NCBI GenBank assembly: GCA_016207245.1
Contig: JACQQA010000012.1
Span: 5,722 to 69,721 of the forward strand
Direction: 5' to 3'
Source: Candidatus Magasanikiibacteriota bacterium
Lineage (GTDB): Bacteria > Patescibacteriota > Patescibacteriia > Magasanikbacterales > UBA922
Length of the DNA: 64,000 nt
Shown: piece after piece, positions 3,104 through 49,452 of the stretch
Numbering within the stretch: the stretch's first letter is position 1
How the letters are laid out: every line of letters begins with the position of its first letter
Notes under the pieces: generated by a model
Seen by the model: the letters and a program-made list of their open reading frames with translations, nothing else
Database searches by the model: none
Told to the model about the DNA's origin: nothing
Program-made: the position numbers and the translations under genes

Positions 3104-4363
3104 TTATTTAATTTCGGTTTTAATCGTTGTTGTTGTGGCAGGAATAGGAGTATTATTTAAAACCCCGCTGTTTACCGCGTCCACGGCTTTTTTAACTTCA
3201 ACCACTGTTCTCTCCGCCTGTTCCGCTGCTTGAGTGGCATCTTTCACTTTACTTATAGCCTCCAACAAATGATTGCCTTCAACCAAAACTTTTGCCTCCT
3301 CTAATGTTTTCTGGCTTTCCTGTCCTTGCGCGATTGCTTGTTTGCTTACATCGCCCAATACATCTTTAATCGTGGAAGTCGGCAAAACAATCGGAGTAGT
3401 GGAACTTACAACAACTTGAATTGAAGAAGTTGAAATCAAAATCGTTGAAGAAACACTGACCACAACATCAGAAGGCAAGTTGTTGGAAGTGACCGGGGCT
3501 GTTTCAAGCACTTTCACCGTATCCTCCGCCTTGCTTTTCATATCACCGGTGTCTTGCATGGCTACATCAATCTGCGTTTTAACAATTGTTTTAGCATCTT
3601 CATCAGAAACAACTCCGCTGTCATCTTTATTTTTTTGCACAACCGTTTGCACAATATCCAAACTGCTATCTTTGACGATTTGCTTTGTCCCGGCGACATC
3701 AACATCTTTTCCGCCCTGTTCCGCCGCCGCAGTTAATGTCTGATTGATATCTTTCGCGGTTTCTTGCATGCCTTTTACAACTTCAACAATTTTTTCCGGC
3801 TCGGTTTCCACCACTTCTTTAATTACTTCATTGGCAGTTTGAATTGACTTTTCCAATTTTACCATTGCTTCCGCCGCTCTTTGCGGAGCATCATCCTCTT
3901 TGTTTTCAACCACTTTTTTTACTTCTTTGGCTCGGCGAGTGGCAAATTCCAAATGCATCTGCGCTTGTTGGTCTTTCGCGCCGGCGACTGATGTTACCAA
4001 TTCTTGAGTTTTTTCCGCAGCCAACTTCACCCCATAACAAACCTCGCCCGGCAAACAATTTTGCGTCGCGCCCACGCTGGCAATCCAACCGCTGGTCGCT
4101 ATCGCGCCGACTAAGATAAAAATCGCCGTTGGACGCACCACGGAATAAGCTAACCGACCCGGCACAAATATATTAATCGCCTGCCAGACATAGTCAAACC
4201 TAAAACGCGGTTTGTCTTCGGAAACCGTATTATTAATTTGCGACATTAATTTCTTCCGATTTTGCGTAACCCAAGCCGAATCTGGATTTAACCGATCATT
4301 TTTTTCTTTGACTGTTTTTAATTGTGCCTTGAGAATTCGCGGCATAGCCAGTGAATTATTCAA
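3104..4363 (-). CDS. Membrane-anchored protein co-transcribed with the ECF sigma factor; putative anti-sigma factor
   Basis: 419-aa ORF overlapping the sigma factor stop by 8 bp. It has a short cytoplasmic N-terminus, a single TM helix (AIFILVGAIATSGWIASV) and a long K/E/V/T-rich extracytoplasmic region. The anti-sigma role is inferred from its position only. Confidence 0.4.
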   Translation of the reverse strand: MNNSLAMPRILKAQLKTVKEKNDRLNPDSAWVTQNRKKLMSQINNTVSEDKPRFRFDYVWQAINIFVPGRLAYSVVRPTAIFILVGAIATSGWIASVGATQNCLPGEVCYGVKLAAEKTQELVTSVAGAKDQQAQMHLEFATRRAKEVKKVVENKEDDAPQRAAEAMVKLEKSIQTANEVIKEVVETEPEKIVEVVKGMQETAKDINQTLTAAAEQGGKDVDVAGTKQIVKDSSLDIVQTVVQKNKDDSGVVSDEDAKTIVKTQIDVAMQDTGDMKSKAEDTVKVLETAPVTSNNLPSDVVVSVSSTILISTSSIQVVVSSTTPIVLPTSTIKDVLGDVSKQAIAQGQESQKTLEEAKVLVEGNHLLEAISKVKDATQAAEQAERTVVEVKKAVDAVNSGVLNNTPIPATTTTIKTEIK

Positions 4364-4970
4364 TTCTATTTTTTTCTAAAAGCTCCTTTAATTTTTTCAG
4401 CGCGCGGTGTAAAGTTACTCTGACATTTATTTGGCTTTTCCCCAAAATCCGCGCCACCTCCCCGGCTGATAATTCTTCTATATAATGCAATAACACCGCT
4501 TCTTGATATTCCAATTTCATTTTTTTTAAAGTCTTCATTATTTTTTCCACTTCTCCGCTAATCATCAGCCGATGTTCACCGCCGGCTTCTTCAACTGCCA
4601 AAGTTTCCACCACTGCGTCTAATGACGACTCCGGCAATCGTTTCGCCCGTTCACGATAAAAATCAACCACTAAATTTCTTGCTATCCGATAAATAAAACT
4701 CGCGAAACTTCTGATCTCTTGTTCGCTGTTTTCCACCAGATAATTCCAAGCTTTTAAAAATACTTCGCTGGTCAAATCCTCCGCTTCCTCACGACTGCTG
4801 ATTTTAAAGAAAATAAAACGATAAATCTTTTTCACGTATAAATCATAAAGTAATCCGTACGCTTCCGGATCTCTCTTAATTCTTACTTTATATAATAGCA
4901 ACTTCTCGTTTATCACGTCCTTCATAATATAAGACGGAGATAAGACAGAAATGTTACACCCCTTTTTCAC
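4356..4970 (-). CDS. ECF-family RNA polymerase sigma-70 factor (sigma-24-like)
   Basis: Region-2 motif LYDLYVKKIYRFIFFKISSREEAEDLTSEVFLKAW and region-4 HTH LSAGEVARILGKSQINVRVTLHRALKKL. The tracked ORF starts with GTG at 4970; the in-frame ATG at 4923-4925 (MKDVINEK...) is the more likely start. Confidence 0.85.
   Translation of the reverse strand: MKKGCNISVLSPSYIMKDVINEKLLLYKVRIKRDPEAYGLLYDLYVKKIYRFIFFKISSREEAEDLTSEVFLKAWNYLVENSEQEIRSFASFIYRIARNLVVDFYRERAKRLPESSLDAVVETLAVEEAGGEHRLMISGEVEKIMKTLKKMKLEYQEAVLLHYIEELSAGEVARILGKSQINVRVTLHRALKKLKELLEKNRIE
4926..4960 (-). promoter_or_regulatory. Possible ECF-type autoregulated promoter (GTAAC-N16-CGTCT) directly upstream of the sigma factor ATG
   Basis: Minus-strand sequence GGTGTAACatttctgtcttatctcCGTCTtatattATG resembles the AAC-N16/17-CGT ECF consensus. 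It would give a near-leaderless transcript. Confidence 0.25.
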
Positions 4971-5846: not shown

Positions 5847-7700
5847 ATGCGTTTTGTTGAAACACACCTAACAAAAGATCGTTTATTCCACAAACCCCAC
5901 AAGTGGTTCTTGGCTTTTTTGTTATCGCCAATTCATTTTCTTGAACTGCATTATAAAAATAAATACCATCTCAATTTTCAACATGCCAAAAAACTTTTTG
6001 TATTTGACATGGGACTGCTTCTGTCAGTCGTTATGCTTTTGGCCGCCACTATTTTTTGGTTCACTTACAACCCAACTATTACAAATTTAATTTTTTTATC
6101 AATTAACACATCTTCTCCTGACACCAAAATTATCAGCGGCGACTACCTCACCTACACTATCACCTACCAAAATAAAAGCGATATTAAAATTGTTTCTCCG
6201 TCTTTGACAACTAATTTGCCGTCGGGCTTTGTTATTGAGACGACAGAACCGAAAGAATCTTTTAATCCAATGGAGCGCAAATTTACTCTTGTCGATTTAT
6301 CACCCGAACAACATGGCCAAGCGGTGATCAGCGGCTGGTTTTACGGCACGCCGGGTGTTGAAAACAAAATTACCGCGATTTTAGAATATACGCAAGAAGG
6401 TCGGACAAACAAAGAGATAAAATCAACTCCCTTGTTTCAATTCCAACGCGGATCGGTTTTAAAAACTGAAATCAACGCGCCGGAAAAACTTATCGCCACC
6501 GGATCAACTCCGATCAAAATAACTTTAACTAATAATGGCAAACGGACGTTAAATAATATTACTCTGCCGCTCGCACTCCCTGCCGGGCTATCTCTGGTTG
6601 GACTAAAAACCGACAAAGAGAAAATAGAAAACAAGCGGTGGCAGATAGACGAATTAAAACCAAACGAAATAGTTAATCTTTCGGCCGAGTTAAAAACGAA
6701 TTTGTCGGAACAAACTAAAGCCGCGGCATTAAAGCTGACACCGTCAATAGAAGTAAACGGCGCAAAAATCGCCCAAAACACTGTTGAAAAAAACTTTTTG
6801 GTTTTGCATCCGCGAATTTCCGTCCAGTCTTATTGGACAAATGAATCTGAAAAAACGCAACCCGGACAAACGGTTGAGCTCAATTTATCCCTCGCCAACA
6901 ATGGCGATATTGATTTAAATAATTTGGAAATAACCGTGCCAATCCAAAGCGAAATTATAAACACCGCTAAATTGACAAAGTTAAACACCGGTAATTATAA
7001 AGACAAAATCTTTACCATCAATTCCAGACATAACGCCGGACTATTGATGCTGGCTAAAAATCAGACAAAAGATTTAACAATAAAAATTCCAATTCTTGAA
7101 TCGCCGGCTGACGGCGCTGACTTAATTTTGAAACTCAATCCGGAATTAAAAGCCAATCTTAATGAACTAACTGGCGCTGCTTATCAAACCAAAATTTCGG
7201 CTCCGGAAATAAAAATCGGCACGCAATTGGACTTAACCGGCGAGGTGCGTTATTTCACCGCTGACGGCGACCAGCTGGGCCGCGGTCCGCTCCCGCCAGA
7301 AGCTGGCAAGGAAACCAAATATTGGGCGCTGTTAAAAATCACAAACACCACCAGCAAAGTTACTAATTTGATTCTAACTGGTAAACTTCCCGAATATGTC
7401 GCGTGGACTAACAAAAGCAGTGTGAGCCACGGCAGTAGCGTAAATTTCAATGAAAAAACTAAAATAATTTCCTGGTCGCTTAACTCGCTCGCGCCGCAAC
7501 AAACTGTTGGCATCTATTTTGAATTAGCTTTAACGCCAACCGCCGAACAGGTTGGAACCGCGCCGATTATTTTACAAAATATTAAACTGGAAGCAACCGA
7601 CGACTTTATTAAAGAGAAAACCTCGCATACTCTGCAGGATTTAGATACTTCTTTGACACATGATTTGATTGGGAGAGAGAAAGGGGTGAAAATAAAATAA
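5847..7700 (+). CDS. Membrane-anchored protein with multiple DUF11/CARDB-like repeat domains
   Basis: N-terminal TM helix (LLLSVVMLLAATIFWFTY) followed by repeated ~100-aa units (e.g. TLTNNGKRTLNNITLPLALPAGLSL, LNLSLANNGDIDLNNLEITVPI). The true start may be the internal M near 6007. Confidence 0.5.
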   Translation: MRFVETHLTKDRLFHKPHKWFLAFLLSPIHFLELHYKNKYHLNFQHAKKLFVFDMGLLLSVVMLLAATIFWFTYNPTITNLIFLSINTSSPDTKIISGDYLTYTITYQNKSDIKIVSPSLTTNLPSGFVIETTEPKESFNPMERKFTLVDLSPEQHGQAVISGWFYGTPGVENKITAILEYTQEGRTNKEIKSTPLFQFQRGSVLKTEINAPEKLIATGSTPIKITLTNNGKRTLNNITLPLALPAGLSLVGLKTDKEKIENKRWQIDELKPNEIVNLSAELKTNLSEQTKAAALKLTPSIEVNGAKIAQNTVEKNFLVLHPRISVQSYWTNESEKTQPGQTVELNLSLANNGDIDLNNLEITVPIQSEIINTAKLTKLNTGNYKDKIFTINSRHNAGLLMLAKNQTKDLTIKIPILESPADGADLILKLNPELKANLNELTGAAYQTKISAPEIKIGTQLDLTGEVRYFTADGDQLGRGPLPPEAGKETKYWALLKITNTTSKVTNLILTGKLPEYVAWTNKSSVSHGSSVNFNEKTKIISWSLNSLAPQQTVGIYFELALTPTAEQVGTAPIILQNIKLEATDDFIKEKTSHTLQDLDTSLTHDLIGREKGVKIK

Positions 7701-7770: not shown

Positions 7771-7804
7771 AGCCCTTGACAAGAGGGCTTTTTTGTGGTA
7801 TAAT
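7771..7804 (+). promoter_or_regulatory. Rho-independent terminator hairpin (AGCCCTTGACAAGAGGGCTTTTTT) overlapping a consensus sigma70 promoter (TTGACA-N17-TGTGGTATAAT)
   Basis: TTGACA at 7776-7781, 17-nt spacer, extended -10 TGTGGTATAAT with TATAAT at 7799-7804. The hairpin plus T-run ends the upstream DUF11 gene. Confidence 0.6.
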
Positions 7805-7933
7805 TATCTGTCAATTTATGCCCAAATCGGGTATATTGGCAAGAGGAAGGACCGACGCTCTTTACAATAGATTGGATTCGCCATGTTGGCGAGTCTTGCG
7901 ATTTTCGTAATTTCAAGAAAAGCGAGGTGCGCG

Positions 7934-10399
7934 ATGGAGACTCTGGAAAAGGTCGTGGCGGTCGCAATGCTGTTCCTGTTCGCGATTCTGTTCGTTTCTG
8001 CGGGCTGTTCTACTGGAGTCAAATGGCAGTGCAAGAAGGACTTGGACTGCGACGACGACAATCTCTGCACCAAGGATTCTTGCAGTGCTGGCATCTGCCA
8101 CTTCGCGAAAGTCAAAGGGTGCGACAACCAGCAGGTGTGCGAAGACGACACTTGCGACAAGACTAACGACGGCGAGTCCAAGGTTGACTCGTCCCCGCCT
8201 CCAGACAATCCGTACAATCCACCGCCGGACACTACCACACCTGAACCCAGTCCGGACACAACGGACACTATTGACAGTGGAACGGAGAACGAGGAAGGCG
8301 GGACGACGGAGACGACCGACACCGCCAACCACGATACGGCGGATACGGACGCGACTAATGGAGATGCGGAAGTTGAGAGTGCTGACGAAGAAGTTGCCGG
8401 ACAGGATGCGGAAACGGCGGAAGCGGAGACAACTCAACTGCCGTGTATCACTTGTGACAATGACGTTGAAGCGTCAGATGCTGGTAGTGATACTGCCGGC
8501 AATGGAGCTGAGGCGTCAATCGCTAATCCCGATTCAAGTCCGGACACTACGGACAGCGGAACGGGGAACGATGGGACGGACGGGGACGGAGATGGCGGAA
8601 AAATCGTTCTGCCACTTCAAGATACTGTCGTCGGGACTGATACTCCAACTCCAGATGTTGTGATGACTAACGACAGCAGTGTCGGTCAAAACGACGATGG
8701 CACGGCAGGACTTGTAGAAATCGGAGTTGACAGTGAATCAGAGGTTGGTCAGAACACGGAAACGACGGAAGAGATATCTCAATCGCCGTGCATCTGCGCT
8801 GACGACAACAATCCATGCACCGACGACTTCTGCAACGACGCGAACCAGTGCGTTCACGAATCAATCGTGGACTGTTGCGTCAAGAACGTTGAATGCGACG
8901 ATAGCGATGTCTGCAATGGAGTGGAAACCTGCGACGCGAACAAGTGCGTCGGTGGTGAACCTCTCGTCTGCGACGACTTCAATGTCTGCACCGACGACTA
9001 CTGCGACTCGATGGACGGCTGCGTCTACGAGCCAAACTCAAACCCCTGTGACGATGGCAATGCCTGCACGATTGGCGATGTCTGCGAACAGGGCGAGTGT
9101 GCATACACGGAAACGTGTGAGTGCATCACAAATGCCGAATGCGGAGATGGAAACAAGTGCACCACTGAATCGTGCGTTAGCAACAAATGCAAGTACGATA
9201 ACGTGGGATGCAACGATTCCGACGCTTGCACCACAGACACCTGCGCTCCGGAAATCGGCTGTGTGTTCGCACAGATCGTCGTTGACGACAACGATGCCTG
9301 CACGGACGACAGTTGTAATTCGGACACGGGCGTGGCGCACATCATCAAGGACTGCGATGACAAGAATGCTTGCACTGCGGATTCCTGCGTCGATGGCCAG
9401 TGCGTCCACACTAACACTTGCGAGTGCATCACGAACCTTCAGTGCGATGACGAAGACATTTGCAGTGGAGTGGAAACCTGTGACGACAACAAATGTGTCG
9501 CGGGACAAAAACTCATTTGCAACGACTTCAACGTCTGCACCACCGACACATGCGACCCGGACAAGGGTTGCGTGTACGAACCGGTCAGCGGCTGCTGTAA
9601 GGCAGACGTTGACTGCAACGACCTCAACGAGTGCACCGGCGACGCGTGCGTCAAGTCCAGCGGTGAGTGTGTACACTTCGGCATCATGGGCAACTGTGAT
9701 GATACCAACGAATGCACCACTAACGACGCGTGCAAGGACAGCAAGTGCGTCGGCGGGCCAGCTCCTAGCTGCAATGACAACAATGTCTGCACCGCGGACT
9801 CGTGCGATTCGGCCATCGGCTGTCAGCATTCAGCTGTCAGCGACAACACGTCGTGCGCGGACAGCACAGTCTGCAATGGCGCGGAAACGTGCCAAAGCGG
9901 ACAATGCGAATCTGGCACGCCGCTTGTCTGCGACGACGGAAATCTGTGCACCGACGACTCATGCGACATGGCAGTCGGCTGCCAGCACGCCAACAACTCC
10001 AACCCCTGCGACGATGGCAACGCCTGCACGATTGACGACAGCTGTTCGCAGGGCGCATGTGAATCCGGTGCTCTCAAAAACTGTGGCGACGGGAAGAATT
10101 GCACCCTTGACATGTGCGATGTCAAGCTGGGATGTTTCAATCCTGTCTGGGGTGTTAACCCCAATGATGACTGCGGTAAATGGGACACAGACGGCGACGG
10201 CAAACAGGACAACGGCGCTGACGTGGACTCCGATAACGACGGGGTCTGCGATCCTGGCGAGTCGCAAACCACCGGACAACCTTGCGTCGGGTCGGATAAT
10301 TGCTGGCTAAAAACAAATCCCGCCCAAACCGATACCGACAACGATGGTCTTGGCGACGCCTGCGACCCGGACAAAAATGGAGATGGCATCCCCGACTAA
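7934..10399 (+). CDS. Secreted cysteine-rich repeat protein: CTDC-type (Dictyostelium-repeat / DUF4215 / Myxococcus Cys-rich-repeat-like) repeats followed by thrombospondin-type-3-like calcium-binding repeats
   Basis: At least 13 repeats with CxDxNxCTxDxCxxxxGC spacing (NVCTDDYC, NACTIGDVC, NKCTTESC, DACTTDTC, NACTADSC, NVCTTDTC, NECTGDAC, NVCTADSC, NLCTDDSC, NACTIDDSC, NCTLDMC). The C-terminus DTDGDGKQDNGADVDSDNDGVCDP...DTDNDGLGDACDPDKNGDGIPD has DxDxDG spacing. An acidic T/D/E-rich linker lies between them. Signal peptide METLEKVVAVAMLFLFAILFVSAGC follows an RBS (GAGGTG) before the ATG at 7934; the tracked ORF starts at 7883. GC content is clearly above the window average. Confidence 0.75.
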   Translation: METLEKVVAVAMLFLFAILFVSAGCSTGVKWQCKKDLDCDDDNLCTKDSCSAGICHFAKVKGCDNQQVCEDDTCDKTNDGESKVDSSPPPDNPYNPPPDTTTPEPSPDTTDTIDSGTENEEGGTTETTDTANHDTADTDATNGDAEVESADEEVAGQDAETAEAETTQLPCITCDNDVEASDAGSDTAGNGAEASIANPDSSPDTTDSGTGNDGTDGDGDGGKIVLPLQDTVVGTDTPTPDVVMTNDSSVGQNDDGTAGLVEIGVDSESEVGQNTETTEEISQSPCICADDNNPCTDDFCNDANQCVHESIVDCCVKNVECDDSDVCNGVETCDANKCVGGEPLVCDDFNVCTDDYCDSMDGCVYEPNSNPCDDGNACTIGDVCEQGECAYTETCECITNAECGDGNKCTTESCVSNKCKYDNVGCNDSDACTTDTCAPEIGCVFAQIVVDDNDACTDDSCNSDTGVAHIIKDCDDKNACTADSCVDGQCVHTNTCECITNLQCDDEDICSGVETCDDNKCVAGQKLICNDFNVCTTDTCDPDKGCVYEPVSGCCKADVDCNDLNECTGDACVKSSGECVHFGIMGNCDDTNECTTNDACKDSKCVGGPAPSCNDNNVCTADSCDSAIGCQHSAVSDNTSCADSTVCNGAETCQSGQCESGTPLVCDDGNLCTDDSCDMAVGCQHANNSNPCDDGNACTIDDSCSQGACESGALKNCGDGKNCTLDMCDVKLGCFNPVWGVNPNDDCGKWDTDGDGKQDNGADVDSDNDGVCDPGESQTTGQPCVGSDNCWLKTNPAQTDTDNDGLGDACDPDKNGDGIPD

Positions 10400-10608
10400 A
10401 ACCAACCAGCTCTTTCATAGCCGAAGCAATCCTTCCCGCTTCGGCTCCAATCCCTTTTGTTTATTTTAAAAGTAAACAGAAGAGAACCCCGCCCTGAGCT
10501 TGCCGAAGGACGGGGTTTTATTTATACTTGACTTATTGACCAAATTATTTTATAATTTCCGCAATAAAACAATGACACGCATTCGTCTCGCTTCGCGAGC
10601 CGAAACAA

Positions 10609-10680
10609 GCCGCCATCGTCTAGTGGTTAGGACACGAGGTTTTCAACCTTGTAACAGGGGTTCGATTCCCCTTGGCGGTA
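10609..10680 (+). tRNA. tRNA-Glu (anticodon UUC)
   Basis: GCCGCCATCGTCTAGTGGTTAGGACACGAGGTTTTCAACCTTGTAACAGGGGTTCGATTCCCCTTGGCGGTA. The acceptor stem pairs (G1-U72 wobble), the anticodon loop TTTTCAA gives UUC, and the T-loop GGTTCGATTCC is canonical. CCA is not encoded. Confidence 0.85.
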
Positions 10681-10687
10681 CAACCTT

Positions 10688-17111: not shown

Positions 17112-19667
17112 TTATACCACACTTTTCACAATAGTGGTACGCGTCTCCGCCCCAAACTTCTTCTTCAACACTTCTCCAACTCTCACATGCGCCGCGTCAA
17201 CTTCCGCGGATTCGAGTGTCTTGCTGTCTGAACGATAAGTAATGTGATACGCCAGACTCTTTTTACCGGCCGGTAAATTCTTGCCCTCGTAAACGTCAAA
17301 TATTTCCACGCTAGCAATCAGCCGGTCAACTTTTTTAAGCTCAAAAATAATTCGCGCGTGTTCAACTTTTTTATCAACCACAAAAGCAATGTCGCGAATT
17401 ACTTCCGGATAAACCGGCAATGGTTGATAGCGCAAAGAATTTTTTAAAACCAACAATAATTTTTCTAAATCCACTTCCGCCACTACCACTCGCTCGTTAA
17501 TTCCCAAACGCTCGGAAAATGACGGGCTGATCTCGGTAATCGCACCCACGCCTTCGCCATTTACTAAAATTTGCGCCTGCCTGCCCCTGTGGATAACTTT
17601 TCCGAGTTCATGGATTGCCGGCTTTAAAACCACGACACAACCAAGACGATCCAACACACCTGTCAAAGCCGCGGAAAGCTCATAAAATGGCGTTAAAACG
17701 CCTTTACCGGCAAAAACCAGACCCAAATACAGCGGCTGGCCGGGCAATAATTCATCGCTGTTTCCGGAAACCCGCAAACCGGCGACCTCGGAATTAAACA
17801 CTCTGCCGATCTCAAACATTCTTACCGCGTCAAAACGATGCAAATTCACTTCCGCGTTTTCCAACAGGCCGGGCCACAAACTGCGGCGCAAAAACGGACG
17901 ATCTTTAGCCACCGGATTGTCCAACTCTATTAAATCAGCGGGGTCAATTCCCAATCTCTCCAATAATTGTGGCGATACGAAAGAATAGTTATACACTTCG
18001 CTGAAACTAAATTCCAGCGCCAAAATTTCTTTTATTCTTCTTTCTAAACTTCTCAACTCGTTTTTAGGCGGAGGAACAATTGGAAACTTTGGCAATGATG
18101 TTGGAATATTGCCATAACCGTAAATCCGCGCCACTTCTTCCACCAAATCTTCGGCAATGGAAATATCTTTTGTCGCGCGCCAGGTTGGAATTTTAACCAA
18201 CAAAACATCTTTTTTTTCTTTAACTTCAAAATCAAGATCGGATAAAATTTTAACCGCCTGTTTCTTTTCTATTTCCAAACCGATTTTTTTAGATAAAAAC
18301 TCCAGCGGCAATTCAATCGGGCCTTGCTGTAAATGAAAATCTTTCACGTCAATAATTTTACTGGCGATTTTCGCGCCCGGGCACAATTCCAATGTCAATT
18401 CCAGCGCTTTTCGCAAAGCCAGTTCGCAATTGTTCGGGTCCAAACTCTTTTCAAACCGCGCCGAGCTGTCAGTGCGCAAACCAAGTTTGACGGAAGTCCG
18501 GCGCACATTCGCGGCATTAAAATTCGCTGATTCATAAATTACAGCAGTCGTCTCATCTTCAACTCCGCTTTCCCGCCCGCCCATCACCCCGGCCAACGCT
18601 ATCGCCTTATCATTTGAACTAATCACCAAATTCTCCGGTGTCAACTCAAACTCTTTCCCGTCCAAACTAACAAACCTCTCTCCCCCTTCCGCCCTTCGTA
18701 CAACAATCGTGATTTTTGATTTTTGATTTTTGATTTTTGATTTATCAAATGCGTGCATCGGCTGTCCCAAATCCAACATTACATAATTGGTGATATCCAC
18801 AATATTATTTATCGGCCGCAGACCGACTGCCAGCAATTTTTTTTGCAGCCAATCCGGCGACGGCGCGACTTTAATCCCCTCAATCGCCACCGCCATATAG
18901 CGAGGACATAATTTTTTATCCTCAACTCGTACGGACAGGTCGCGACCTGTCCCTATCTTGCAATCTTTAATTTTATAATTCACTAATTTTTTATTAAACA
19001 ACGCTCCCACTTCTCTCGCCATTCCATAATGTCCCCACAAATCCGGCCGATTGGACAAACTTTTGTTGTCAATTTCAAAAATAATGTCATCCAATCCGAG
19101 GACTGCGGACAACGCCTGCCCGCCGATGAGGTGGGGACTACCGACGATTTTGTCATTCCCGTGTAAACGGGAATCCATCGCGTTCGATTTCTGGATCCCC
19201 GCCTCCGCGGGGACGACAAATGAGAGGTCTAGAATCTCTTTCTCGTCTTTTAAGGGAAACCTGTCTCCCAATCCAATCTCGGTTGACGCGCAAATCATGC
19301 CGAATGATTCCACGCCGCGGATTTTCGCTTTTGCCAATTCAACCAATTCGCCTTCGCCGTGCCAGCGCACTTTCGCGCCAATTCTGCCAAACGCGACTTT
19401 CATCCCCTCTTTCACATTTGAGCCGCCGCAAACCACTTGCCAATCTTGCGCGCCGTCATTAACTATACAAACTTTTAACTTATCCGCGTCAGGATGTTTA
19501 ACAACTTTTTTTACCAAACCAACAACAATGTTATCCAAATCTTTTCCTTGCTTAACAATTTTTTCCACCTCCACCGTGCTCATTGTCAATTTCAACGCCA
19601 ACTCTTCCGGAGTGAGAGAGTTTGGCAGATCAATGTATTGTTTGAGCCAGTTAAAACTTATTAACAT
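17112..19667 (-). CDS. pheT: Phenylalanine--tRNA ligase beta subunit
   Basis: 851 aa; N-terminus MLISFNWLKQYIDL and a B3/B4 region (DDIIFEIDNKSLSNRPDLWGHYG). Contains apparent in-frame repeat-element insertions at 19152-19217, 18950-18969 and 18711-18745. Confidence 0.9.
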   Translation of the reverse strand: MLISFNWLKQYIDLPNSLTPEELALKLTMSTVEVEKIVKQGKDLDNIVVGLVKKVVKHPDADKLKVCIVNDGAQDWQVVCGGSNVKEGMKVAFGRIGAKVRWHGEGELVELAKAKIRGVESFGMICASTEIGLGDRFPLKDEKEILDLSFVVPAEAGIQKSNAMDSRLHGNDKIVGSPHLIGGQALSAVLGLDDIIFEIDNKSLSNRPDLWGHYGMAREVGALFNKKLVNYKIKDCKIGTGRDLSVRVEDKKLCPRYMAVAIEGIKVAPSPDWLQKKLLAVGLRPINNIVDITNYVMLDLGQPMHAFDKSKIKNQKSKITIVVRRAEGGERFVSLDGKEFELTPENLVISSNDKAIALAGVMGGRESGVEDETTAVIYESANFNAANVRRTSVKLGLRTDSSARFEKSLDPNNCELALRKALELTLELCPGAKIASKIIDVKDFHLQQGPIELPLEFLSKKIGLEIEKKQAVKILSDLDFEVKEKKDVLLVKIPTWRATKDISIAEDLVEEVARIYGYGNIPTSLPKFPIVPPPKNELRSLERRIKEILALEFSFSEVYNYSFVSPQLLERLGIDPADLIELDNPVAKDRPFLRRSLWPGLLENAEVNLHRFDAVRMFEIGRVFNSEVAGLRVSGNSDELLPGQPLYLGLVFAGKGVLTPFYELSAALTGVLDRLGCVVVLKPAIHELGKVIHRGRQAQILVNGEGVGAITEISPSFSERLGINERVVVAEVDLEKLLLVLKNSLRYQPLPVYPEVIRDIAFVVDKKVEHARIIFELKKVDRLIASVEIFDVYEGKNLPAGKKSLAYHITYRSDSKTLESAEVDAAHVRVGEVLKKKFGAETRTTIVKSVV

Positions 19668-31450: not shown

Positions 31451-32677
31451 ATGGATAAAAGAAAAATAATTTTCGCGGGCATATTTCTAGTTATCTGCGT
31501 GGCAGTCGGTTTTCTGCTTTATTGGGTATTTTTCGCTAAGAAAATACCGTCAACAACTACGGGTCAGCCGGGAACGGAAGTCCCGGTTGCCGGCCAATTC
31601 CCTACTGCCGGCGTCGGCCAGCCGACTTTGCCGACTACCAAGCCGGGCAAACTGCCGACCGCGGTAAGCAAACCGATTACGCCGAAAACCGTTACTCCAA
31701 CAGTCAAACCATCTTTCCCAATCACAAACAAAGTTGACAGCTCAATTCTTGGTAGTAGCAAAGACACGGTTGGTTCGGCAAAATTTTATAATACCACTGA
31801 CGGCAGATTTTATCGCTTAAACAAAGACGGTTCAATTGCGTCTTTAAGCGACGAAGTATTTTTTAATGTTCAAAAAGCGACCTGGTCGCCGACAAAAAAC
31901 GAATCTATTATTGAATATCCTGACGGTTCAAACATTTATTATAATTTTGACACAAAAAAACAAGTCACTTTGCCAAAACATTGGCAGGATTTTTCTTTCT
32001 CGCCTTTGGGGGATAAAATCGCCAGTAAAAGCATGGGGCTGGCAACGGAAAATCGCTGGCTCGTTACCGCTGATCCGGAAGGAAAAAGCGTTAAATTAAT
32101 CGCGCCGCTTGGGGAAAACGCTGATAAAGTAACCGTCAACTGGTCGCCGAATAAACAAATCGTAGCCACCTCCGCCACCGGAGACCCGCAGGGAGCGGAC
32201 AAACAAGAAATTTTGTTCGTCGGCTTGCAGGGAGAAAATTTCCGCTCCATTGTCGTGGAAGGCCGCGGATTTGAAAGCCAGTGGTCAACCAGCGGGAAAA
32301 AACTGCTTTACAGCGTCTATAGCGCCAGAAGCAACTTCAAACCGGAACTCTGGATCGTTAACGCCGAAGGCGACAGTATCGGCACTGGCAGAAAAATGTT
32401 AAATTTAAATACTTGGTCGGAAAAGTGCGCGTTCAGCGATGATCGCTTTATTTACTGCGCCGTACCAACGCAAATGCAAACCGGCGCCGGCTTCGCGCCC
32501 GGACTGGCAGATGCCACCAATGATAAAATTTATAAAATAGACACGGAAACCGGCATTAAAACCGAGCTGACCACTGACGGTTACCACACGGTTGACAGCA
32601 TGTTCCTCGGCGATAATAACAAAACGATTTATTTCACGGATAAAAACAGCTCCGGACTATTTAGCGTGCCAATATGA
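31451..32677 (+). CDS. Membrane-anchored TolB-like / WD40-like beta-propeller (PD40) protein with proline/threonine-rich linker
   Basis: N-terminal TM helix, PT-rich linker (TTGQPGTEVPVAGQFPTAGVGQPTLPTTKPGKLPT), then repeated ~40-aa units with DG/SP/DG patterns typical of PD40 blades (e.g. WSPTKNESIIEY, FSPLGDKIASKS, WSPNKQIVATSA). Confidence 0.45.
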   Translation: MDKRKIIFAGIFLVICVAVGFLLYWVFFAKKIPSTTTGQPGTEVPVAGQFPTAGVGQPTLPTTKPGKLPTAVSKPITPKTVTPTVKPSFPITNKVDSSILGSSKDTVGSAKFYNTTDGRFYRLNKDGSIASLSDEVFFNVQKATWSPTKNESIIEYPDGSNIYYNFDTKKQVTLPKHWQDFSFSPLGDKIASKSMGLATENRWLVTADPEGKSVKLIAPLGENADKVTVNWSPNKQIVATSATGDPQGADKQEILFVGLQGENFRSIVVEGRGFESQWSTSGKKLLYSVYSARSNFKPELWIVNAEGDSIGTGRKMLNLNTWSEKCAFSDDRFIYCAVPTQMQTGAGFAPGLADATNDKIYKIDTETGIKTELTTDGYHTVDSMFLGDNNKTIYFTDKNSSGLFSVPI

Positions 32678-33327
32678 TAAAAACCAAACTCCTCGCGGTC
32701 GTTTTTATTCCGGCAATTTTGGTTGCCGGCTTGGCGCTGTTTGTCCGCGTTATTCAATATGAACCGCTCTACCCGGAAATAGATAAAAATAAAGAGGCCG
32801 AAGTTAAAAAAGACAGTCTGATTACTATCCCCATTTATCCAACTGATCCGATTATCGGCGAGAAAAAAGCGCCGCGAACGGTCATTGCTTTTGAAGATTT
32901 CGGCTGTGAACACTGCCAAGCGCAGTTTGCGGTGATTGAAGAATTCATGGCCAAACACCCGGGCACGGTTAAAATAATTTGGAAGAGTTTGCCGGTTACT
33001 AAATTCCCCTATGCCAGCGACACGGCGAACGAATATGCTTACTGTTTGAACGAGCAAAATAAATTCATGGACTTCGCGCGGCTGGCGTTTACTAATAGCT
33101 ATCAATTAAAGCAGGATATCTTAGACGCGATTGTTAAAGAGATTAACGCCAATGAAAAAAAACTTAGCGCCTGCGTCCAATCCGGAACCGCGAAACAACA
33201 AATTGAGCGGGTTAAAGAAATCGCGCGATTGTTGAATATTCAAGCCATCCCCGCGATATTTTTAGACAACAAACAAGTCAACCCGCCGGCGACAGTGGAG
33301 GGGTGGGAGGCGATGATGAGGCTGTAA
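32674..33327 (+). CDS. DsbA-like thioredoxin-fold thiol:disulfide oxidoreductase
   Basis: N-terminal TM anchor and CEHC active-site motif (FEDFGCEHCQAQF) in a thioredoxin-like context. Overlaps the upstream gene by 4 bp. Confidence 0.6.
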   Translation: MIKTKLLAVVFIPAILVAGLALFVRVIQYEPLYPEIDKNKEAEVKKDSLITIPIYPTDPIIGEKKAPRTVIAFEDFGCEHCQAQFAVIEEFMAKHPGTVKIIWKSLPVTKFPYASDTANEYAYCLNEQNKFMDFARLAFTNSYQLKQDILDAIVKEINANEKKLSACVQSGTAKQQIERVKEIARLLNIQAIPAIFLDNKQVNPPATVEGWEAMMRL

Positions 33328-43743: not shown

Positions 43744-45108
43744 TCAATCCTTTTTTTGTTTATATTCCGGCGGAGAAATCTGCAAATCAATCCGGTTTAA
43801 GTCGCGCGGGAACAGCGTGGCGTATTTGATATTATCAATATCCAGCAGTTTGGCGGTCATGCGCTCCAAACCGATTGCCAGCCCGCCTTCCGGAGGCATG
43901 CCATATTTAAACGCCTCCAAATAAAACTCAAATTTTTCCGGCTTTAAGCCCCACTTTTTAATATTGGCAACCAACTGATCATAATCATTAATACGCTGAC
44001 CGCCGGTGGTCACCTCTACCCCGCGGAAAAGCAGATCAAAACTCTTGGTAAATTCCGGATCGGTTTCATCAGGATAAGTATACATTGGACGTTTGACGGT
44101 TGGATAATGCGTTACAAAAACAAAATCCGACTGAAATTTTTTCTTTGCATACTCACAGATCCATTTTTCTTCATTCGGTTCTAAATCAGGCTCTTTGGTG
44201 TGGTCAATTTTTGTTTCTTGTTTAATTATTTCCTGCGCCTCGCGTAATTTGAAAACCGGTATTTTTTCCGGCAATTCCGGACGAATATAATTTAATAATT
44301 TTAATTCCCGCGCGACTGTTTTATCCAGATGATCCAACAAAAAGCGCAAAAATTTTGTTTCCAATTCCATGACATCGGTATGGTCTTTTATCATGCCAAA
44401 TTCCAAATCCAAACTGGTATATTCATTTATATGACGCGTAGTGGCATGCTCCTCGGCGCGGTAAACATTGCCGACCGTGAACACGCGCTCAAACGCGCCA
44501 ACCATTATTTGCTTATAAAACTGCGGACTTTGCGCCAAATATGCTTTGGTATCAAAATATTTAATTTCAAAAACATTGGAGCCACCCTCGGTGGAATCAC
44601 CAACGATTTTTGGACACTGAAATTCAGTAAAACTTTCACCGCGCAAAAATGCCCGAAACGCTTCCACGATTTCGCTCTGCACCTTAAACACTGCACGCCA
44701 CTTTTCAGAGCGCAATGTGAGCGGTAAATTATCCAAATGCACGTCTAAACCGATTTTCTCGTCCTCTAAATCCAACGGCAGTGGCTCGGCTTTTGCCAAC
44801 ACTTTAAATCCTTTTGCCAACACCTCAATTTCGCCGGTGGCCAAATTCGGATTAATATTTTTTACCCCGCGTTTATTTACCAGACCCTTGATTTCAACTA
44901 CATACTCGCTATGAACGTCTTTAAGTAAATCATAATCCACGCCCAAATCATTTGGCACGCAAACTACCTGGACTAAACCGGCGCGGTCGCGCACATCCAA
45001 AAACACAATTTTGCCCAAATTGCGTCTAGTCTGCACCCAGCCGGCGATAGTTACTTCTTGGCCGACATGATTGACATTAAGTTCTCCGCAAGTGTTTGTA
45101 CGATTCAT
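43744..45108 (-). CDS. aspS: Aspartate--tRNA ligase, short archaeal/eukaryal-type (class IIb)
   Basis: Anticodon-binding OB fold (FLDVRDRAG), the AspRS-specific QSPQFYKQ motif and motif 3 GGLAIGLERMTAKLL. 454 aa rather than ~590. Confidence 0.8.
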   Translation of the reverse strand: MNRTNTCGELNVNHVGQEVTIAGWVQTRRNLGKIVFLDVRDRAGLVQVVCVPNDLGVDYDLLKDVHSEYVVEIKGLVNKRGVKNINPNLATGEIEVLAKGFKVLAKAEPLPLDLEDEKIGLDVHLDNLPLTLRSEKWRAVFKVQSEIVEAFRAFLRGESFTEFQCPKIVGDSTEGGSNVFEIKYFDTKAYLAQSPQFYKQIMVGAFERVFTVGNVYRAEEHATTRHINEYTSLDLEFGMIKDHTDVMELETKFLRFLLDHLDKTVARELKLLNYIRPELPEKIPVFKLREAQEIIKQETKIDHTKEPDLEPNEEKWICEYAKKKFQSDFVFVTHYPTVKRPMYTYPDETDPEFTKSFDLLFRGVEVTTGGQRINDYDQLVANIKKWGLKPEKFEFYLEAFKYGMPPEGGLAIGLERMTAKLLDIDNIKYATLFPRDLNRIDLQISPPEYKQKKD

Positions 45109-45343: not shown

Positions 45344-46399
45344 TTAATCATCGTACCAGCACAACGAATAGACATTATCGTCACTATCGTAGACTTTTTG
45401 ACAGGAGGTGTGCGGGAAGATGTTAGTTGGGCAGTCGGCGTCCGACTCGCAGTTGCAGAATGATGGATCGCCGTCATCACACCCCAGCGGGCAGATAGTT
45501 TGCGCCTTAAAGGGGTAAGTGCAGATGCTGTCCACGCACTTGCGATCTTTCATACCCGTGACGTACCAAACACCATCTTTGCATGAAGGAAGGTACGCGA
45601 CGTTCAAGTCACAGTCCTCATCGGACTCACACGGGCCCCATCCCGATGCGCAACCTCCAGTTTGGTAGTCGCACACATCGATGGTATCAGGGTCTCCATC
45701 GTTGCAGTCCGGCACATGCTCACACTGTTGGGAGACAGTACTGAAAAAGTCTACTGTGCAAGCGATGCTGTCATCGCAGTTTCCGTAGGGGTATTTCTGG
45801 CATTTAGCCGGAAAGAAGCTATCATCGTAACAATACCCATCCGGACCCAAAGCATCCTTACAGTCTTCGTACTCCACTAAATGTTCGCATTTGCCGTACA
45901 CGCATATGAACGTGTCCGACGATTCGTATGCCAGGTTGTCGCCCTGGCACCATGTAAGGTTGTTCCAGAATATATCTAACGTTCCGTTCGAATACGCAAG
46001 TTGGCAGTCGAACCCATCTTTGCACAACGTGCAGTAGGGTTCCTTGATTTTCGCGCACCCGCCCCCCTCCCATGTAGAGTGTACGCAGGCGTTGTCTTTG
46101 TACTCCTCCCCTTCTTCGCACGACCCAATGCAGTGTGGAATGGTAGCATGAGCGCAGTGTCTGTCTTGCGGATAGTATTTTTCCACAGTGCACGGATCAC
46201 CATCGTCGTCGCAGTCTTCATCAATTGTGCGTAGCCCGACATTGCTGTCAGCGTCGATGGAGGACGTCGTGTCCACATCACCGCTGTCCTCCGACGTGGA
46301 CTGGTAGGCGGTATCAACCGAGAGACTGGAACCGGAATCGGGACAGGCGGTCAGAAACAAAAACGAGAACAGGAACATGGTCGTCACGAAACGGTACAT
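45344..46399 (-). CDS. Cysteine-rich secreted lipoprotein
   Basis: Signal peptide with lipobox LFLTAC (MYRFVTTMFLFSFLFLTAC) after RBS GGGAG. An acidic S/D-rich linker, then >40 Cys in CDDGDPC / CxDxDxD-type repeats. GC content is above the window average. The tracked ORF starts upstream at 46426. Confidence 0.65.
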   Translation of the reverse strand: MYRFVTTMFLFSFLFLTACPDSGSSLSVDTAYQSTSEDSGDVDTTSSIDADSNVGLRTIDEDCDDDGDPCTVEKYYPQDRHCAHATIPHCIGSCEEGEEYKDNACVHSTWEGGGCAKIKEPYCTLCKDGFDCQLAYSNGTLDIFWNNLTWCQGDNLAYESSDTFICVYGKCEHLVEYEDCKDALGPDGYCYDDSFFPAKCQKYPYGNCDDSIACTVDFFSTVSQQCEHVPDCNDGDPDTIDVCDYQTGGCASGWGPCESDEDCDLNVAYLPSCKDGVWYVTGMKDRKCVDSICTYPFKAQTICPLGCDDGDPSFCNCESDADCPTNIFPHTSCQKVYDSDDNVYSLCWYDD

Positions 46400-48132: not shown

Positions 48133-49452
48133 TCATGGTCTCAAACGATTAATCGTCCGCGGAAAGGGAACACACTCTCTGATGTGCTCGGCGCCGGAAA
48201 TCCAACGCACGACGCGCTCCACGCCAATACCAAAGCCGGAATGCGGCACCGAACCATATTTGCGCAAGTCTAAGTACCATTCATAATCTTTCTCGCTCAA
48301 ACCTTCGTGACCGATTCTCTCTATCAACAAATCATAATCATCCTCGCGCTGGGACCCGCCGATTAGCTCACCCGCGCCCTCAATCCCGATTAAATCATCA
48401 TTCAAAACCAAATCTGAATTTCCCGGATCTATTTTCATATAAAACGGCTTAATATTTTTAGGCCATTTTTCTATAAACACCGGCACGTCAGAATCTTTTG
48501 TTAAAAGCCCCTCGTCATCATTACCCAAATCCTCGCCATGTTTTATATCACTGCCTAATTTATTTAACTTTTTAATCGCCTCATCATAAGTATAACGAAC
48601 AAAAGGTTTATCAACCATCACCCTCAAAGCAGTCACATCGCGTTCCAAAATTTTAAATTCTTGTTGGCAATCTTCCAAACATTTTTTTACTATCGCCTTA
48701 ACTAAATTTTCTTGAATTTTCAAGTTTTCGTCATGTTCCACAAACGCGGCTTCAGCATCCATCATCCAAAACTCGGTCAAATGGCGTTTAGTCGCTGATT
48801 TTTCCGCGCGAAAAACCGGGCCAAAATCATAACACCGCCCGACTGACGCGATCGCGGCTTCAATATATAACTGGCCGGATTGAGATAAATAAGCTGTGCC
48901 TAAATCAAAATATGGCACGGGGAAAAGCGTGGTCGTGCCTTCGCAGGCATTTGGAGTAAAAATCGGCGAGTCAGTACGGATAAAATTCTCGCTGTGCAGA
49001 TATTTGTTAATCGCGGTCTCCACCGTGTCTCTAATCCGCAAAATCGCCCATTGTTTTTTTGACCGCAACCACAAATGCCGATTATCCATCAAAAATTCCG
49101 GCCCATGGTCTTTTTTGCTTATTGGGTATTCTTGCGCGAGTTGTATAATCTTGAAACTTGCTTGCCCTGAGCTTGCCGAAGGGATAATTTGCAACTCATA
49201 CACCCCTTCCTGCTTCGGATGCTTTGTGACTTTCCCCGTCACTTCAACCGATGACTCCTGCGTCGTCTTATCAATCGCTTCCCAAACTTCCGCCGGTAAA
49301 CCTTCTTTCACTGCCACGGCCTGCGCAAAACCAGAACCATCGCGGATTTCCAAAAACGCAATCTTGCCGGACGAACGTTTGTTGTTCAGCCAGCCTTTAA
49401 TTGTTACCTCCTCACCGACTTCGGTTGATAAATCTTTGATAAATGTTTGCAT
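48133..49452 (-). CDS. asnS: Asparagine--tRNA ligase (class IIb)
   Basis: OB fold FLEIRDGSG, the AsnRS-type LSQSGQLY motif (versus QSPQ in AspRS) and motif 3 GFGIGVERVVRWI; 439 aa. An in-frame repeat-derived insertion (PSASSGQAS) lies at 49168-49192. Confidence 0.65.
   Translation of the reverse strand: MQTFIKDLSTEVGEEVTIKGWLNNKRSSGKIAFLEIRDGSGFAQAVAVKEGLPAEVWEAIDKTTQESSVEVTGKVTKHPKQEGVYELQIIPSASSGQASFKIIQLAQEYPISKKDHGPEFLMDNRHLWLRSKKQWAILRIRDTVETAINKYLHSENFIRTDSPIFTPNACEGTTTLFPVPYFDLGTAYLSQSGQLYIEAAIASVGRCYDFGPVFRAEKSATKRHLTEFWMMDAEAAFVEHDENLKIQENLVKAIVKKCLEDCQQEFKILERDVTALRVMVDKPFVRYTYDEAIKKLNKLGSDIKHGEDLGNDDEGLLTKDSDVPVFIEKWPKNIKPFYMKIDPGNSDLVLNDDLIGIEGAGELIGGSQREDDYDLLIERIGHEGLSEKDYEWYLDLRKYGSVPHSGFGIGVERVVRWISGAEHIRECVPFPRTINRLRP

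Follow-up and report, generated by a model that had tools for sequence, protein, structure and literature searches.

We propose, with moderate confidence, that the CTDC gene at 7934-10399 (+) of the 64 kb stretch of DNA analysed here (the window) encodes a lipid-anchored, disulfide-rich surface stalk protein with a Ca2+-binding tip, and that it was acquired horizontally by its Candidatus Magasanikbacteria host from a GC-rich lineage. The 821-residue product would undergo Sec export, followed by lipidation of Cys25. A DsbA-like oxidoreductase encoded in the same window would oxidise the 90 cysteines of the mature chain to about 45 disulfides, and these would make the repeats a rigid, protease-resistant stalk. 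An acidic spacer would carry the stalk out through the cell envelope, away from the membrane, and stalk and tip, in a mature chain with a net charge of -146, would bind Ca2+. The protein would serve as an accessory surface fibril attaching to a host cell or particle, and Magasanikbacteria would have obtained its gene horizontally from a lineage of GC-rich bacteria in which the CTDC family abounds.

Candidatus Magasanikbacteria belong to the Candidate Phyla Radiation (CPR, or Patescibacteria) and are tiny groundwater bacteria with a reduced genome, as the first-pass annotation had supposed of this organism. The assignment of the window to this lineage agrees with the relatives of its TsaD, and the DUF11 protein encoded upstream of the CTDC gene is 100% identical to an NCBI protein from a Candidatus Magasanikbacteria metagenome-assembled genome (MAG) with locus tags HY569_. 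CPR bacteria are thought to live attached to other cells, and to our knowledge very few CPR attachment proteins are known. With its strong promoter, predicted lipid anchor and about 45 predicted disulfides, the CTDC lipoprotein would be a well-defined candidate for study, present in part of one CPR lineage and foreign in its composition in each of the host genomes analysed. Should the gene indeed have been acquired from, or be exchanged with, GC-rich neighbours, it would show how a reduced-genome symbiont gets surface machinery.

Anatomy of the CTDC lipoprotein

The longest open reading frame (ORF) at the locus runs from 7883 to 10399 (+) and would give 838 aa. The first-pass annotation had the coordinates 7934-10399 right and the length wrong, as its 838 aa belong to the ATG at 7883. 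We place the true start at ATG 7934, giving 821 aa, because a Shine-Dalgarno GAGG (7924-7927) lies 6 nt ahead of it, because the 911-aa ortholog in the closest genome, RIFCSPLOWO2_12_FULL_43_12 (hereafter L004; DnaE 90% identical), begins at the equivalent ATG, and because the gene callers give 821 aa, this exact product having been called on two independent Logan contigs. A start at ATG 7883 was ruled out, its L004 copy lying 56 nt away and out of frame. Logan contig L001 spans both the CTDC gene and, at 100% identity, the beginning of tsaD downstream of it.

Residues 1-25 (7934..8008, +), read from the sequence as METLEKVVAVAMLFLFAILFVSAG/C, comprise a signal peptide with a K-containing n-region, a 15-residue hydrophobic core and, by inspection, the lipobox VSAG/C, in keeping with the PROSITE PS51257-style pattern; lipidation is predicted at Cys25. 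The earlier proposal of an exported Cys-rich protein is upheld by this signal peptide and lipobox, and lipoboxes occur in all four Magasanikbacteria versions of the protein, as VLCG/C in L004 and as LSSS/C and MVG/C in two further related loci, L057 and L058. A membrane-proximal Cys module follows, about 1.75 CTDC units by cysteine spacing (CKKDLDCDDDNLCTKDSCSAGIC...CDNQQVCEDDTC; aa 33-74, 8030..8155, +), of which 8/8 cysteines are kept in L004 at 69% identity. The next 211 residues (aa 75-285, 8156..8788, +) are by composition an acidic low-complexity spacer rich in T, D, E, G, S and P. Over the sampled stretch aa 81-285 this spacer is 16% T, 15% D and 10% E with a net charge of -50, which agrees with the acidic T/D/E-rich stalk described earlier ahead of the repeats. 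Its alignment with L004 contains indels, and where the window protein has a two-cysteine remnant, LPCITC, L004 has a full CTDC unit. Beyond the spacer lie the CTDC array of 17 four-cysteine units, defined by Pfam PF00526 and cysteine spacing (aa 286-734, 8789..10135, +), and a C-terminal tail (aa 735-821, 10136..10396, +) resembling thrombospondin type 3 (TSP3) repeats and containing DTDGDGKQD, DSDNDGVCD and DNCWLKTNPAQTDTDNDGLGDACDPDKNGDGIPD. Asp, Cys and Asn make up 35% of the protein. There are 91 cysteines in the 821 residues, 90 of them in the mature chain, rather than the more than 100 first announced, and the mature chain has 176 Asp+Glu against 30 Lys+Arg.

The repeats belong to Pfam PF00526, Dicty_CTDC, which matches at E=3.9e-40 and 135.7 bits (gathering cutoff 27) in 12 scored stretches and is the sole Pfam family reported on the whole protein; the L004 ortholog scores 98.6 bits. 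At least 13 copies had been claimed, and 17 array units are counted, or about 19 CTDC units by cysteine spacing once the roughly 1.75 near the N-terminus are included. The spacing C-x5-C-x4/5-C-x4/5/6-C is regular in 16/17 array units, the remaining one being degenerate, with a period of 24-33 aa. Unit type A, CxDxNxCTxDxCdxxxGC, alternates along the array with type B, CxDGxxCxxxxxCxxGxC, with three CC or CxC caps interspersed and a higher-order repeat of about 158 nt; at the DNA level the units, which fall into repeat families D1-D3, are 60-80% identical. Careful alignment thus finds the cysteine spacing conserved between repeats, with 66/67 array cysteines kept in the L004 ortholog, and the cysteine columns are invariant across 30-42 homologs. 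Membership of the Myxococcus-type DUF4215 repeats, also suggested earlier, did not hold: neither DUF4215 (PF13948) in the Pfam scan nor any family in the NCBIfam scan, TIGR02232 and TIGR04201 included, matched at E<=1. PF13948 is present in some homologs (P0019, P0021).

The architecture had also been called eukaryote-like, a label we drop, since the family owes its Dictyostelium name to history. Searched exhaustively with HMMER, 1.84 billion cluster representatives yielded 15,766 matches at E<=1e-3, of which 7,959 reach E<=1e-10 and 2,611 reach E<=1e-30; giant proteins of 2,000-5,400 aa are numerous among them. The source-named hits of a word-indexed search were all bacterial MAGs (Deltaproteobacteria, Myxococcota/Myxococcales, Binatia, Pseudomonadota and one Magasanikbacteria), with few taxon names supplied by looking up the clusters of the best hits. 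The CTDC family is ordinary and bacterial, and the gene is a further member of a very large bacterial family; what makes it interesting is that it occurs in CPR, occupies a variable slot of fixed position and keeps a foreign composition. A metagenome scan for extra close orthologs returned only two distant loci, and in the literature we found no paper on bacterial or CPR CTDC proteins. P0001, the best hit and not from CPR, lies on a 62% GC contig (L056, 495-14831) with two same-strand CTDC paralogs of 1,045-1,094 aa, one directly adjoining it and the other about 4 kb upstream, a trio that offers an example of family expansion in GC-rich bacteria. L057 has, some 8 kb downstream of the slot gene, a second gene that matches Dicty_CTDC weakly (19297-19450) and encodes 403 aa up to the point where it runs off the locus, and some CPR genomes may carry more than one CTDC gene.

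PF00526 was listed in 2021 among the repeat families of no known structure (PMC8078820). An AlphaFold2 (AF2) model of residues 285-821 (537 aa) has a mean predicted local distance difference test score (pLDDT) of 75.8, with 70-96 over the array and below 50 in the tail, and shows one beta-hairpin per CTDC unit. Its predicted template modelling score (pTM) is 0.35, a low value that would be expected of an elongated chain. The repetitive stalk region by which fibrillar adhesins are recognised is present, the 17 tandem units being modelled as an elongated string of hairpins. Searched against the PDB with Foldseek, the long model finds the Cys-rich arm of the Entamoeba Gal/GalNAc lectin heavy chain at E=9e-6 and a five-unit model (pLDDT 93.6) finds the same arm at E=0.011, with template modelling (TM) scores of 0.1-0.24 across models; otherwise only ADAM disintegrin/Cys-rich modules are found. 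The five-unit model is of interest as one that finds no good PDB match, in a family of more than 15,000 sequence clusters and no solved CTDC structure.

The tail carries four DxDxDG-type motifs, and the protein as a whole one strict DxDxDGxxDxxD motif and four looser ones. Pfam TSP_3 (PF02412) gives no match at E<=1 when the whole protein is scanned; restricted to the final 75 aa, it reaches 23.6 bits (E=4e-5) over profile positions 1-23 of 36, and the L004 tail, with three repeats, scores 50.5 bits. A phmmer search of the PDB matches COMP 3fby at E=1.3e-12, TSP-2 at 3.7e-6 and TSP-1 at 1.4e-5, aligning residues 787-821, so that the DxDxDGxxDxxD calcium-ligand motif and its flanking Cys pair can be aligned to solved T3 repeats. 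The earlier TSP3 assignment therefore stands as to its motifs and the COMP match and falls short of the Pfam cutoff, with 23.6 against 25 bits on the tail alone. We accept the tail as a TSP3-type predicted calcium-binding motif of about 1.5-2 repeats only.

The TSP_3 match ending at position 23 of 36 and the roughly 90 extra residues of L004 raised the possibility of a C-terminal truncation or a pseudogene, which we rejected. The C-terminus of the window protein is the natural one, since P0020, the L057 protein, ends at the same residue (NGDGVKD, then stop), the 3' untranslated region is homologous from the stop codon onwards, and no remnant of the L004 domain lies downstream. The C-terminus is polymorphic among the four versions. 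Those of the window (10136-10399) and L057 stop right after the first TSP3 repeat (NGDGxxD, stop), and those of L004 (9100-9711) and L058 (8499-10754) continue into a further Cys-rich C-terminal domain of about 90 aa, L004 having an extra TSP3 repeat as well. This pattern is at odds with genome relatedness and suggests recombination or recurrent deletion.

A variable slot at a conserved locus

In Magasanikbacteria the gene sits at a conserved locus whose one strand encodes an approximately 1,250-aa protein, a DUF5667-like protein and an extracytoplasmic function (ECF) sigma factor, and whose other strand encodes an HTH_17 protein (about 110 aa) and a DUF11/CLIPPER protein (about 615 aa), after which comes a variable slot. 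In the window the DUF11/CLIPPER protein (5847..7700, +; 617 aa; Pfam DUF11 E=3.9e-17) has a CARDB-like part and a hydrophobic N-terminal stretch; the ECF-type sigma factor (4356-4970, -; Pfam Sigma70_r2/r4_2) and the DUF5667 protein (3104-4363, -; Pfam DUF5667) are encoded divergently from it. DUF11 was lately renamed CLIPPER in a survey of intramolecular isopeptide bond domains (PMC12617251). Of 152 homologs of the window's DUF11 protein, the 120 listed are about 530-650 aa long, and those among them that are named are nearly all from Magasanikbacteria.

Homologs of the CTDC gene, which the first-pass annotation had advised seeking in related genomes, turned up as an ortholog in L004 and as slot equivalents in L057 and L058. 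Gene order in L004 is that of the window (DUF5667, ECF sigma, DUF11, CTDC gene, tRNA-Glu, tsaD, dnaE), and the contig of P0148 shares with L004 both the 911-aa gene and its surroundings. A CTDC lipoprotein gene fills the slot in the window, L004 (=L063), L057 (P0020, 1,149 aa) and L058 (751 aa), and the slot is empty in L059, L060 and L061, giving occupancy in 4/7 distinct genomes sampled. The sigma/DUF5667 arrangement is the same in L004, L057-L061 and L063. It is also found in L062, where the contig ends right after the DUF11 gene and so does not include the slot; that of P0149 likewise ends before it. Where present, the CTDC gene is always directly downstream of the DUF11 gene. As the slot is occupied in some Magasanikbacteria genomes and empty in others, the CTDC gene is an accessory gene at a fixed position.

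Between the window and L004 the whole CTDC gene has a synonymous divergence (dS) of 1.09 and a ratio of nonsynonymous to synonymous divergence (dN/dS) of 0.24 (array 0.19, linker 0.34); five flanking genes have dS of 0.86-1.14 and dN/dS of 0.05-0.14. The gene is under purifying selection, more relaxed than in its neighbours, and because its dS equals that of the flanks it has descended together with them since the window and L004 split. The diversifying selection that had been considered possible gives no gene-wide signal, with pairwise dN/dS of 0.19-0.34 against the ortholog. The two copies have also changed by whole modules: L004 has an extra linker CTDC unit, the extra TSP3 repeat and the C-terminal domain of about 90 aa, and the final two units of the window protein's array are missing from it.

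A sigma-70 promoter, TTGACA-17-TATAAT with an upstream TG (7776..7804, +), matches the consensus at 12/12 positions, and so strong a promoter suggests high expression. Its -35 hexamer lies inside a terminator-like hairpin (7771-7789, with a T-run) that would terminate the upstream DUF11 transcript. The 5' leader (7805..7933, +), which includes the GAGG and the rejected start ATG 7883, was delimited by alignment with L004 and has a fold z-score of -2.7; it is near-identical to its L004 counterpart save for one 36-nt GC-rich and one 5-nt insertion in L004, and it may carry a regulatory element. Farther upstream of the -35 hexamer the intergenic DNA is not conserved with L004. Two tandem terminator hairpins follow the gene (10419-10446 and about 10479-10523, +; -15 and -18 kcal/mol, z -5.0 and -3.7), the second consisting of a stem and a U-run and kept in L004 through compensatory changes. 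After these terminators comes a tRNA-Glu (10609-10681) with its own promoter ahead. The noncoding flanks at 7773-7933 and 10397-10608 are about 90% or more identical to L004 6773-6975 and 9709-9882, with coding dS of about 1. They are thus far more conserved than synonymous sites, fourfold third-position identity being 0.48-0.63.

Foreign composition and the origin of the gene

With 55.8% GC, the CTDC gene stands out from surroundings of about 45% GC. Third-position GC content (GC3) is 0.65 over the gene (0.71 in the array, 0.49 in the linker) and 0.35-0.57, about 0.47, across 25 other genes of the window. The same excess is seen in L004 (0.65 against 0.42-0.45 in the neighbours), in L057 (0.84 against 0.32-0.49) and in L058 (0.72 against 0.21-0.35). 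Codon choice in the array departs from the background accordingly, with GAC at 0.74 against 0.38, AAC at 0.68 against 0.33, AAG at 0.76 against 0.17 and GTC at 0.61 against 0.17. Translational selection as the cause of this bias is not supported: the ribosomal protein genes L15 and S5 have GAC at 0.36, AAG at 0.22 and GTC at 0.14, where the CTDC gene has 0.71, 0.61 and 0.53, and secY in the window is likewise free of GC3 codon bias. Since the non-repeat parts are GC3-rich too in L057 and L058, where signal peptide and linker have 0.78 and 0.57-0.65 against 0.2-0.3 in the host, a foreign origin of the whole gene is favoured over a repeat-specific force. Under a two-state model of amelioration whose rate was taken from the flanks, the array would have had a GC3 of about 0.87 when the window and L004 split, and the predicted fraction of differences between strong and weak base pairs (S/W) is 0.31, against 0.28 observed. 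Taken together, the composition makes horizontal origin from a GC-rich lineage the better explanation, one that would need the slot to have been filled by capture several times or else a force that keeps the bias in place.

A number of points weigh against this origin. The highly expressed reference set comprised two ribosomal protein genes only. A stationary model fits as well as amelioration, and simple amelioration could not be rejected; a force sustaining high GC3 may thus also be compatible with the data. That several lineages should each have acquired the gene at one and the same slot is unparsimonious. No close donor was found, the best non-orthologous hits reaching only 33-43% identity across the repeats, and the word-indexed search, like the search of representatives, returned neither the query nor its 911-aa ortholog, so that nearest relatives may be missed. 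Long repeat proteins probably crowd the candidate list of the word-indexed search, which makes it unusable for naming a donor.

The most serious competitor, which we still regard as unlikely, is an old, vertically inherited Magasanikbacteria gene that was repeatedly lost and whose high GC3 is actively maintained, for example by selection for C/G-ending codons, by selection for an mRNA that is stable and GC-rich, or by gene conversion between repeats that favours GC. It accounts for the finding that slot, lipoprotein N-terminus and a tail of TSP3 type are common to all four copies; strict TSP3 motifs occur in only about 3-6% of other family members and never terminally among the C-termini listed. 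The equality of dS in gene and flanks and the stationary fit are also as this explanation would have them, as are the correlation of GC3 with cysteine density (r = 0.71 in the window, 0.52 in L004) beside a host-like linker GC3, and the perfect promoter, which suggests high expression. However, the ribosomal protein genes do not have this codon preference, and AAG, CAG and GTC are biased as well, beyond the NAY and TGY codons. Nor would repeat-specific maintenance make signal peptide and linker GC3-rich in L057 and L058, and units that are only 60-80% identical in DNA are a poor substrate for gene conversion. The Magasanikbacteria copies, moreover, are 34-39% identical to one another, no closer than they are to deltaproteobacterial hits. 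That the GC-rich gene is an artefact of assembly or binning, joined chimerically into a CPR contig, is effectively refuted. The contrast in GC invites the suspicion, as do the repeats, at which assemblies tend to break, and the end of L062 right after the DUF11 gene. Yet CPR genes stand on both sides in one contig, the same junctions recur in independent assemblies from different projects (L004, L063, L057, L058), L001 joins the gene to the start of tsaD at 100% identity, promoter and terminators are conserved with L004, and the dS of the gene is that of its flanks.

Thiol chemistry, proposed role and known systems

The oxidoreductase invoked in the model, reported by the first-pass annotation at 32674-33327 (+), is confirmed as a membrane-anchored DsbA-like thiol-disulfide oxidoreductase by its matches to Thioredoxin_4 (E=3.1e-24) and DSBA (E=2.5e-9), its CEHC active-site motif and its N-terminal membrane anchor. 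It is the candidate enzyme for oxidising the 90 cysteines outside the cytoplasm. Its gene shares a 4-nt overlap with the end of a gene for a 408-aa protein (the pair spanning 31451-33327), with which it is probably co-transcribed. We considered this 408-aa neighbour as a DsbB or VKOR and set it aside, as it has a single N-terminal hydrophobic segment, 3 cysteines only and no Pfam match. The second Cys-rich lipoprotein reported earlier at 45344-46399 (-) is likewise present, with 351 aa, 35 Cys, an LTAC lipobox and a GC3 of 0.63. Pfam gives no match to it, the word-indexed search finds no homolog, and its similarity to the CTDC units is weak (pairwise E=8e-4), with faint CTDC-like motifs only. 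Together with an RsmB-like methyltransferase gene it lies between genes for two class II aminoacyl-tRNA synthetases of the Asp/Lys/Asn type (43744-45108 and 48133-49452, -), less than 5 kb apart.

As regards the anchored stalk itself, the case is lessened by several observations. Lipidation, disulfide formation and calcium binding are all predicted from sequence. Among the window ORFs scanned (64 kb of genome), neither lgt nor lspA and no DsbB or VKOR was seen. The TSP_3 score of the tail is below the cutoff and its AF2 confidence is below 50. The Pfam and NCBIfam scans show no recognisable adhesive, ligand-binding or catalytic head domain beyond CTDC and the TSP3-like tail. A putative adhesin or host-interaction role, as first suggested, remains plausible.

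Rather unlikely, in our view, is a structural or ion-handling component of the envelope in place of an adhesin, that is, a polyanionic coat fibril, binding Ca2+ or metal, that would buffer divalent cations or lend the envelope stability beside the DUF11/CLIPPER protein. The mature net charge of -146 with 176 Asp+Glu, the calcium-binding motifs of TSP3 type read from the sequence and the lack of an adhesive head domain in the Pfam and NCBIfam scans would all suit such a fibril, as would its constant place beside a conserved DUF11/CLIPPER stalk-domain protein and a strong promoter suggestive of abundance. A core structural part should not, however, be absent from 3/7 related genomes, and faster evolution than in the neighbours, with gain and loss of modules, is more typical of interaction proteins. 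A more specific reading, which we hold to be improbable, is a swappable docking protein derived from the host, its GC-rich gene captured repeatedly from host bacteria (Myxococcota- or Desulfobacterota-like, lineages where the family is very abundant) into one dedicated expression slot behind the sigma/DUF5667/DUF11 locus, with a consensus promoter to drive it, and the protein attaching to CTDC proteins of the host in a homotypic, TraA-style or Ca2+-bridged manner. Were it true, the GC3 excesses of 0.84, 0.72 and 0.65 would mark separate captures of different ages.

The closest known systems are bacterial PF00526 proteins (P0001, P0003 and P0128, from MAGs of Deltaproteobacteria, Myxococcota and Binatia), which have the same alternating four-cysteine units, CxDxNxCTxDxCdxxxGC and CxDGxxCTxxDxCxxGxC, at 33-43% identity, and of which about half of the hits show a lipoprotein-like N-terminus under a loose pattern. 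They are mostly 1,000-5,400 aa long, come from GC-rich genomes and carry other partner domains, whereas the window protein is short, is encoded in a reduced CPR genome and combines a long acidic spacer with a TSP3 tail at its end. The CTDC proteins of Dictyostelium (PsiA, DicA1/PsiF and prespore/matrix proteins) match the same Pfam model and are secreted and disulfide-rich (PMC3325183). By description they are set apart, being eukaryotic, often with PA14, and having no lipobox or TSP3 tail.

For the tail, the T3 repeats of COMP and the thrombospondins (PF02412; 3fby, 1yo8, 1ux6) provide the comparison, and DNCwlktNPaQtDtDnDGlGDaCDpDknGDGipD aligns to them position by position, including the Asp ligands and the Cys pair. 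The window tail has about 1.5-2 repeats against 7 or more in these proteins, and no L-lectin-like C-terminal domain follows it. For the array, the nearest solved structure is the Cys-rich arm of Entamoeba histolytica Hgl (PDB 9gjc and related), which presents beta-strand-pair modules on a surface adhesin; the match is weak, at 14-20% identity and TM 0.1-0.24, with E=0.011 for the five-unit model. In the Hgl lectin, modules of about 20 residues build an elongated arm rigidified by interdomain disulfides, and sugar is bound by the light chain rather than by the Cys-rich arm (PMC12948311).

Finally, TraA of Myxococcus xanthus combines a PA14 domain and Cys-rich repeats (TIGR04201) with MYXO-CTERM, its proposed surface stalk presenting a recognition domain. 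The window protein differs in that it matches none of TIGR04201, TIGR02232 and DUF4215, has no PA14 head and carries an N-terminal lipid, as predicted, and not a C-terminal sorting tag. The Cys-rich repeats of TraA have been proposed to form a rigid stalk, and their resemblance to PF00526 has been noted (PMC3325183). Functionally, the CTDC lipoprotein finds its nearest analogy in TraA's proposed rigid Cys-rich stalk.

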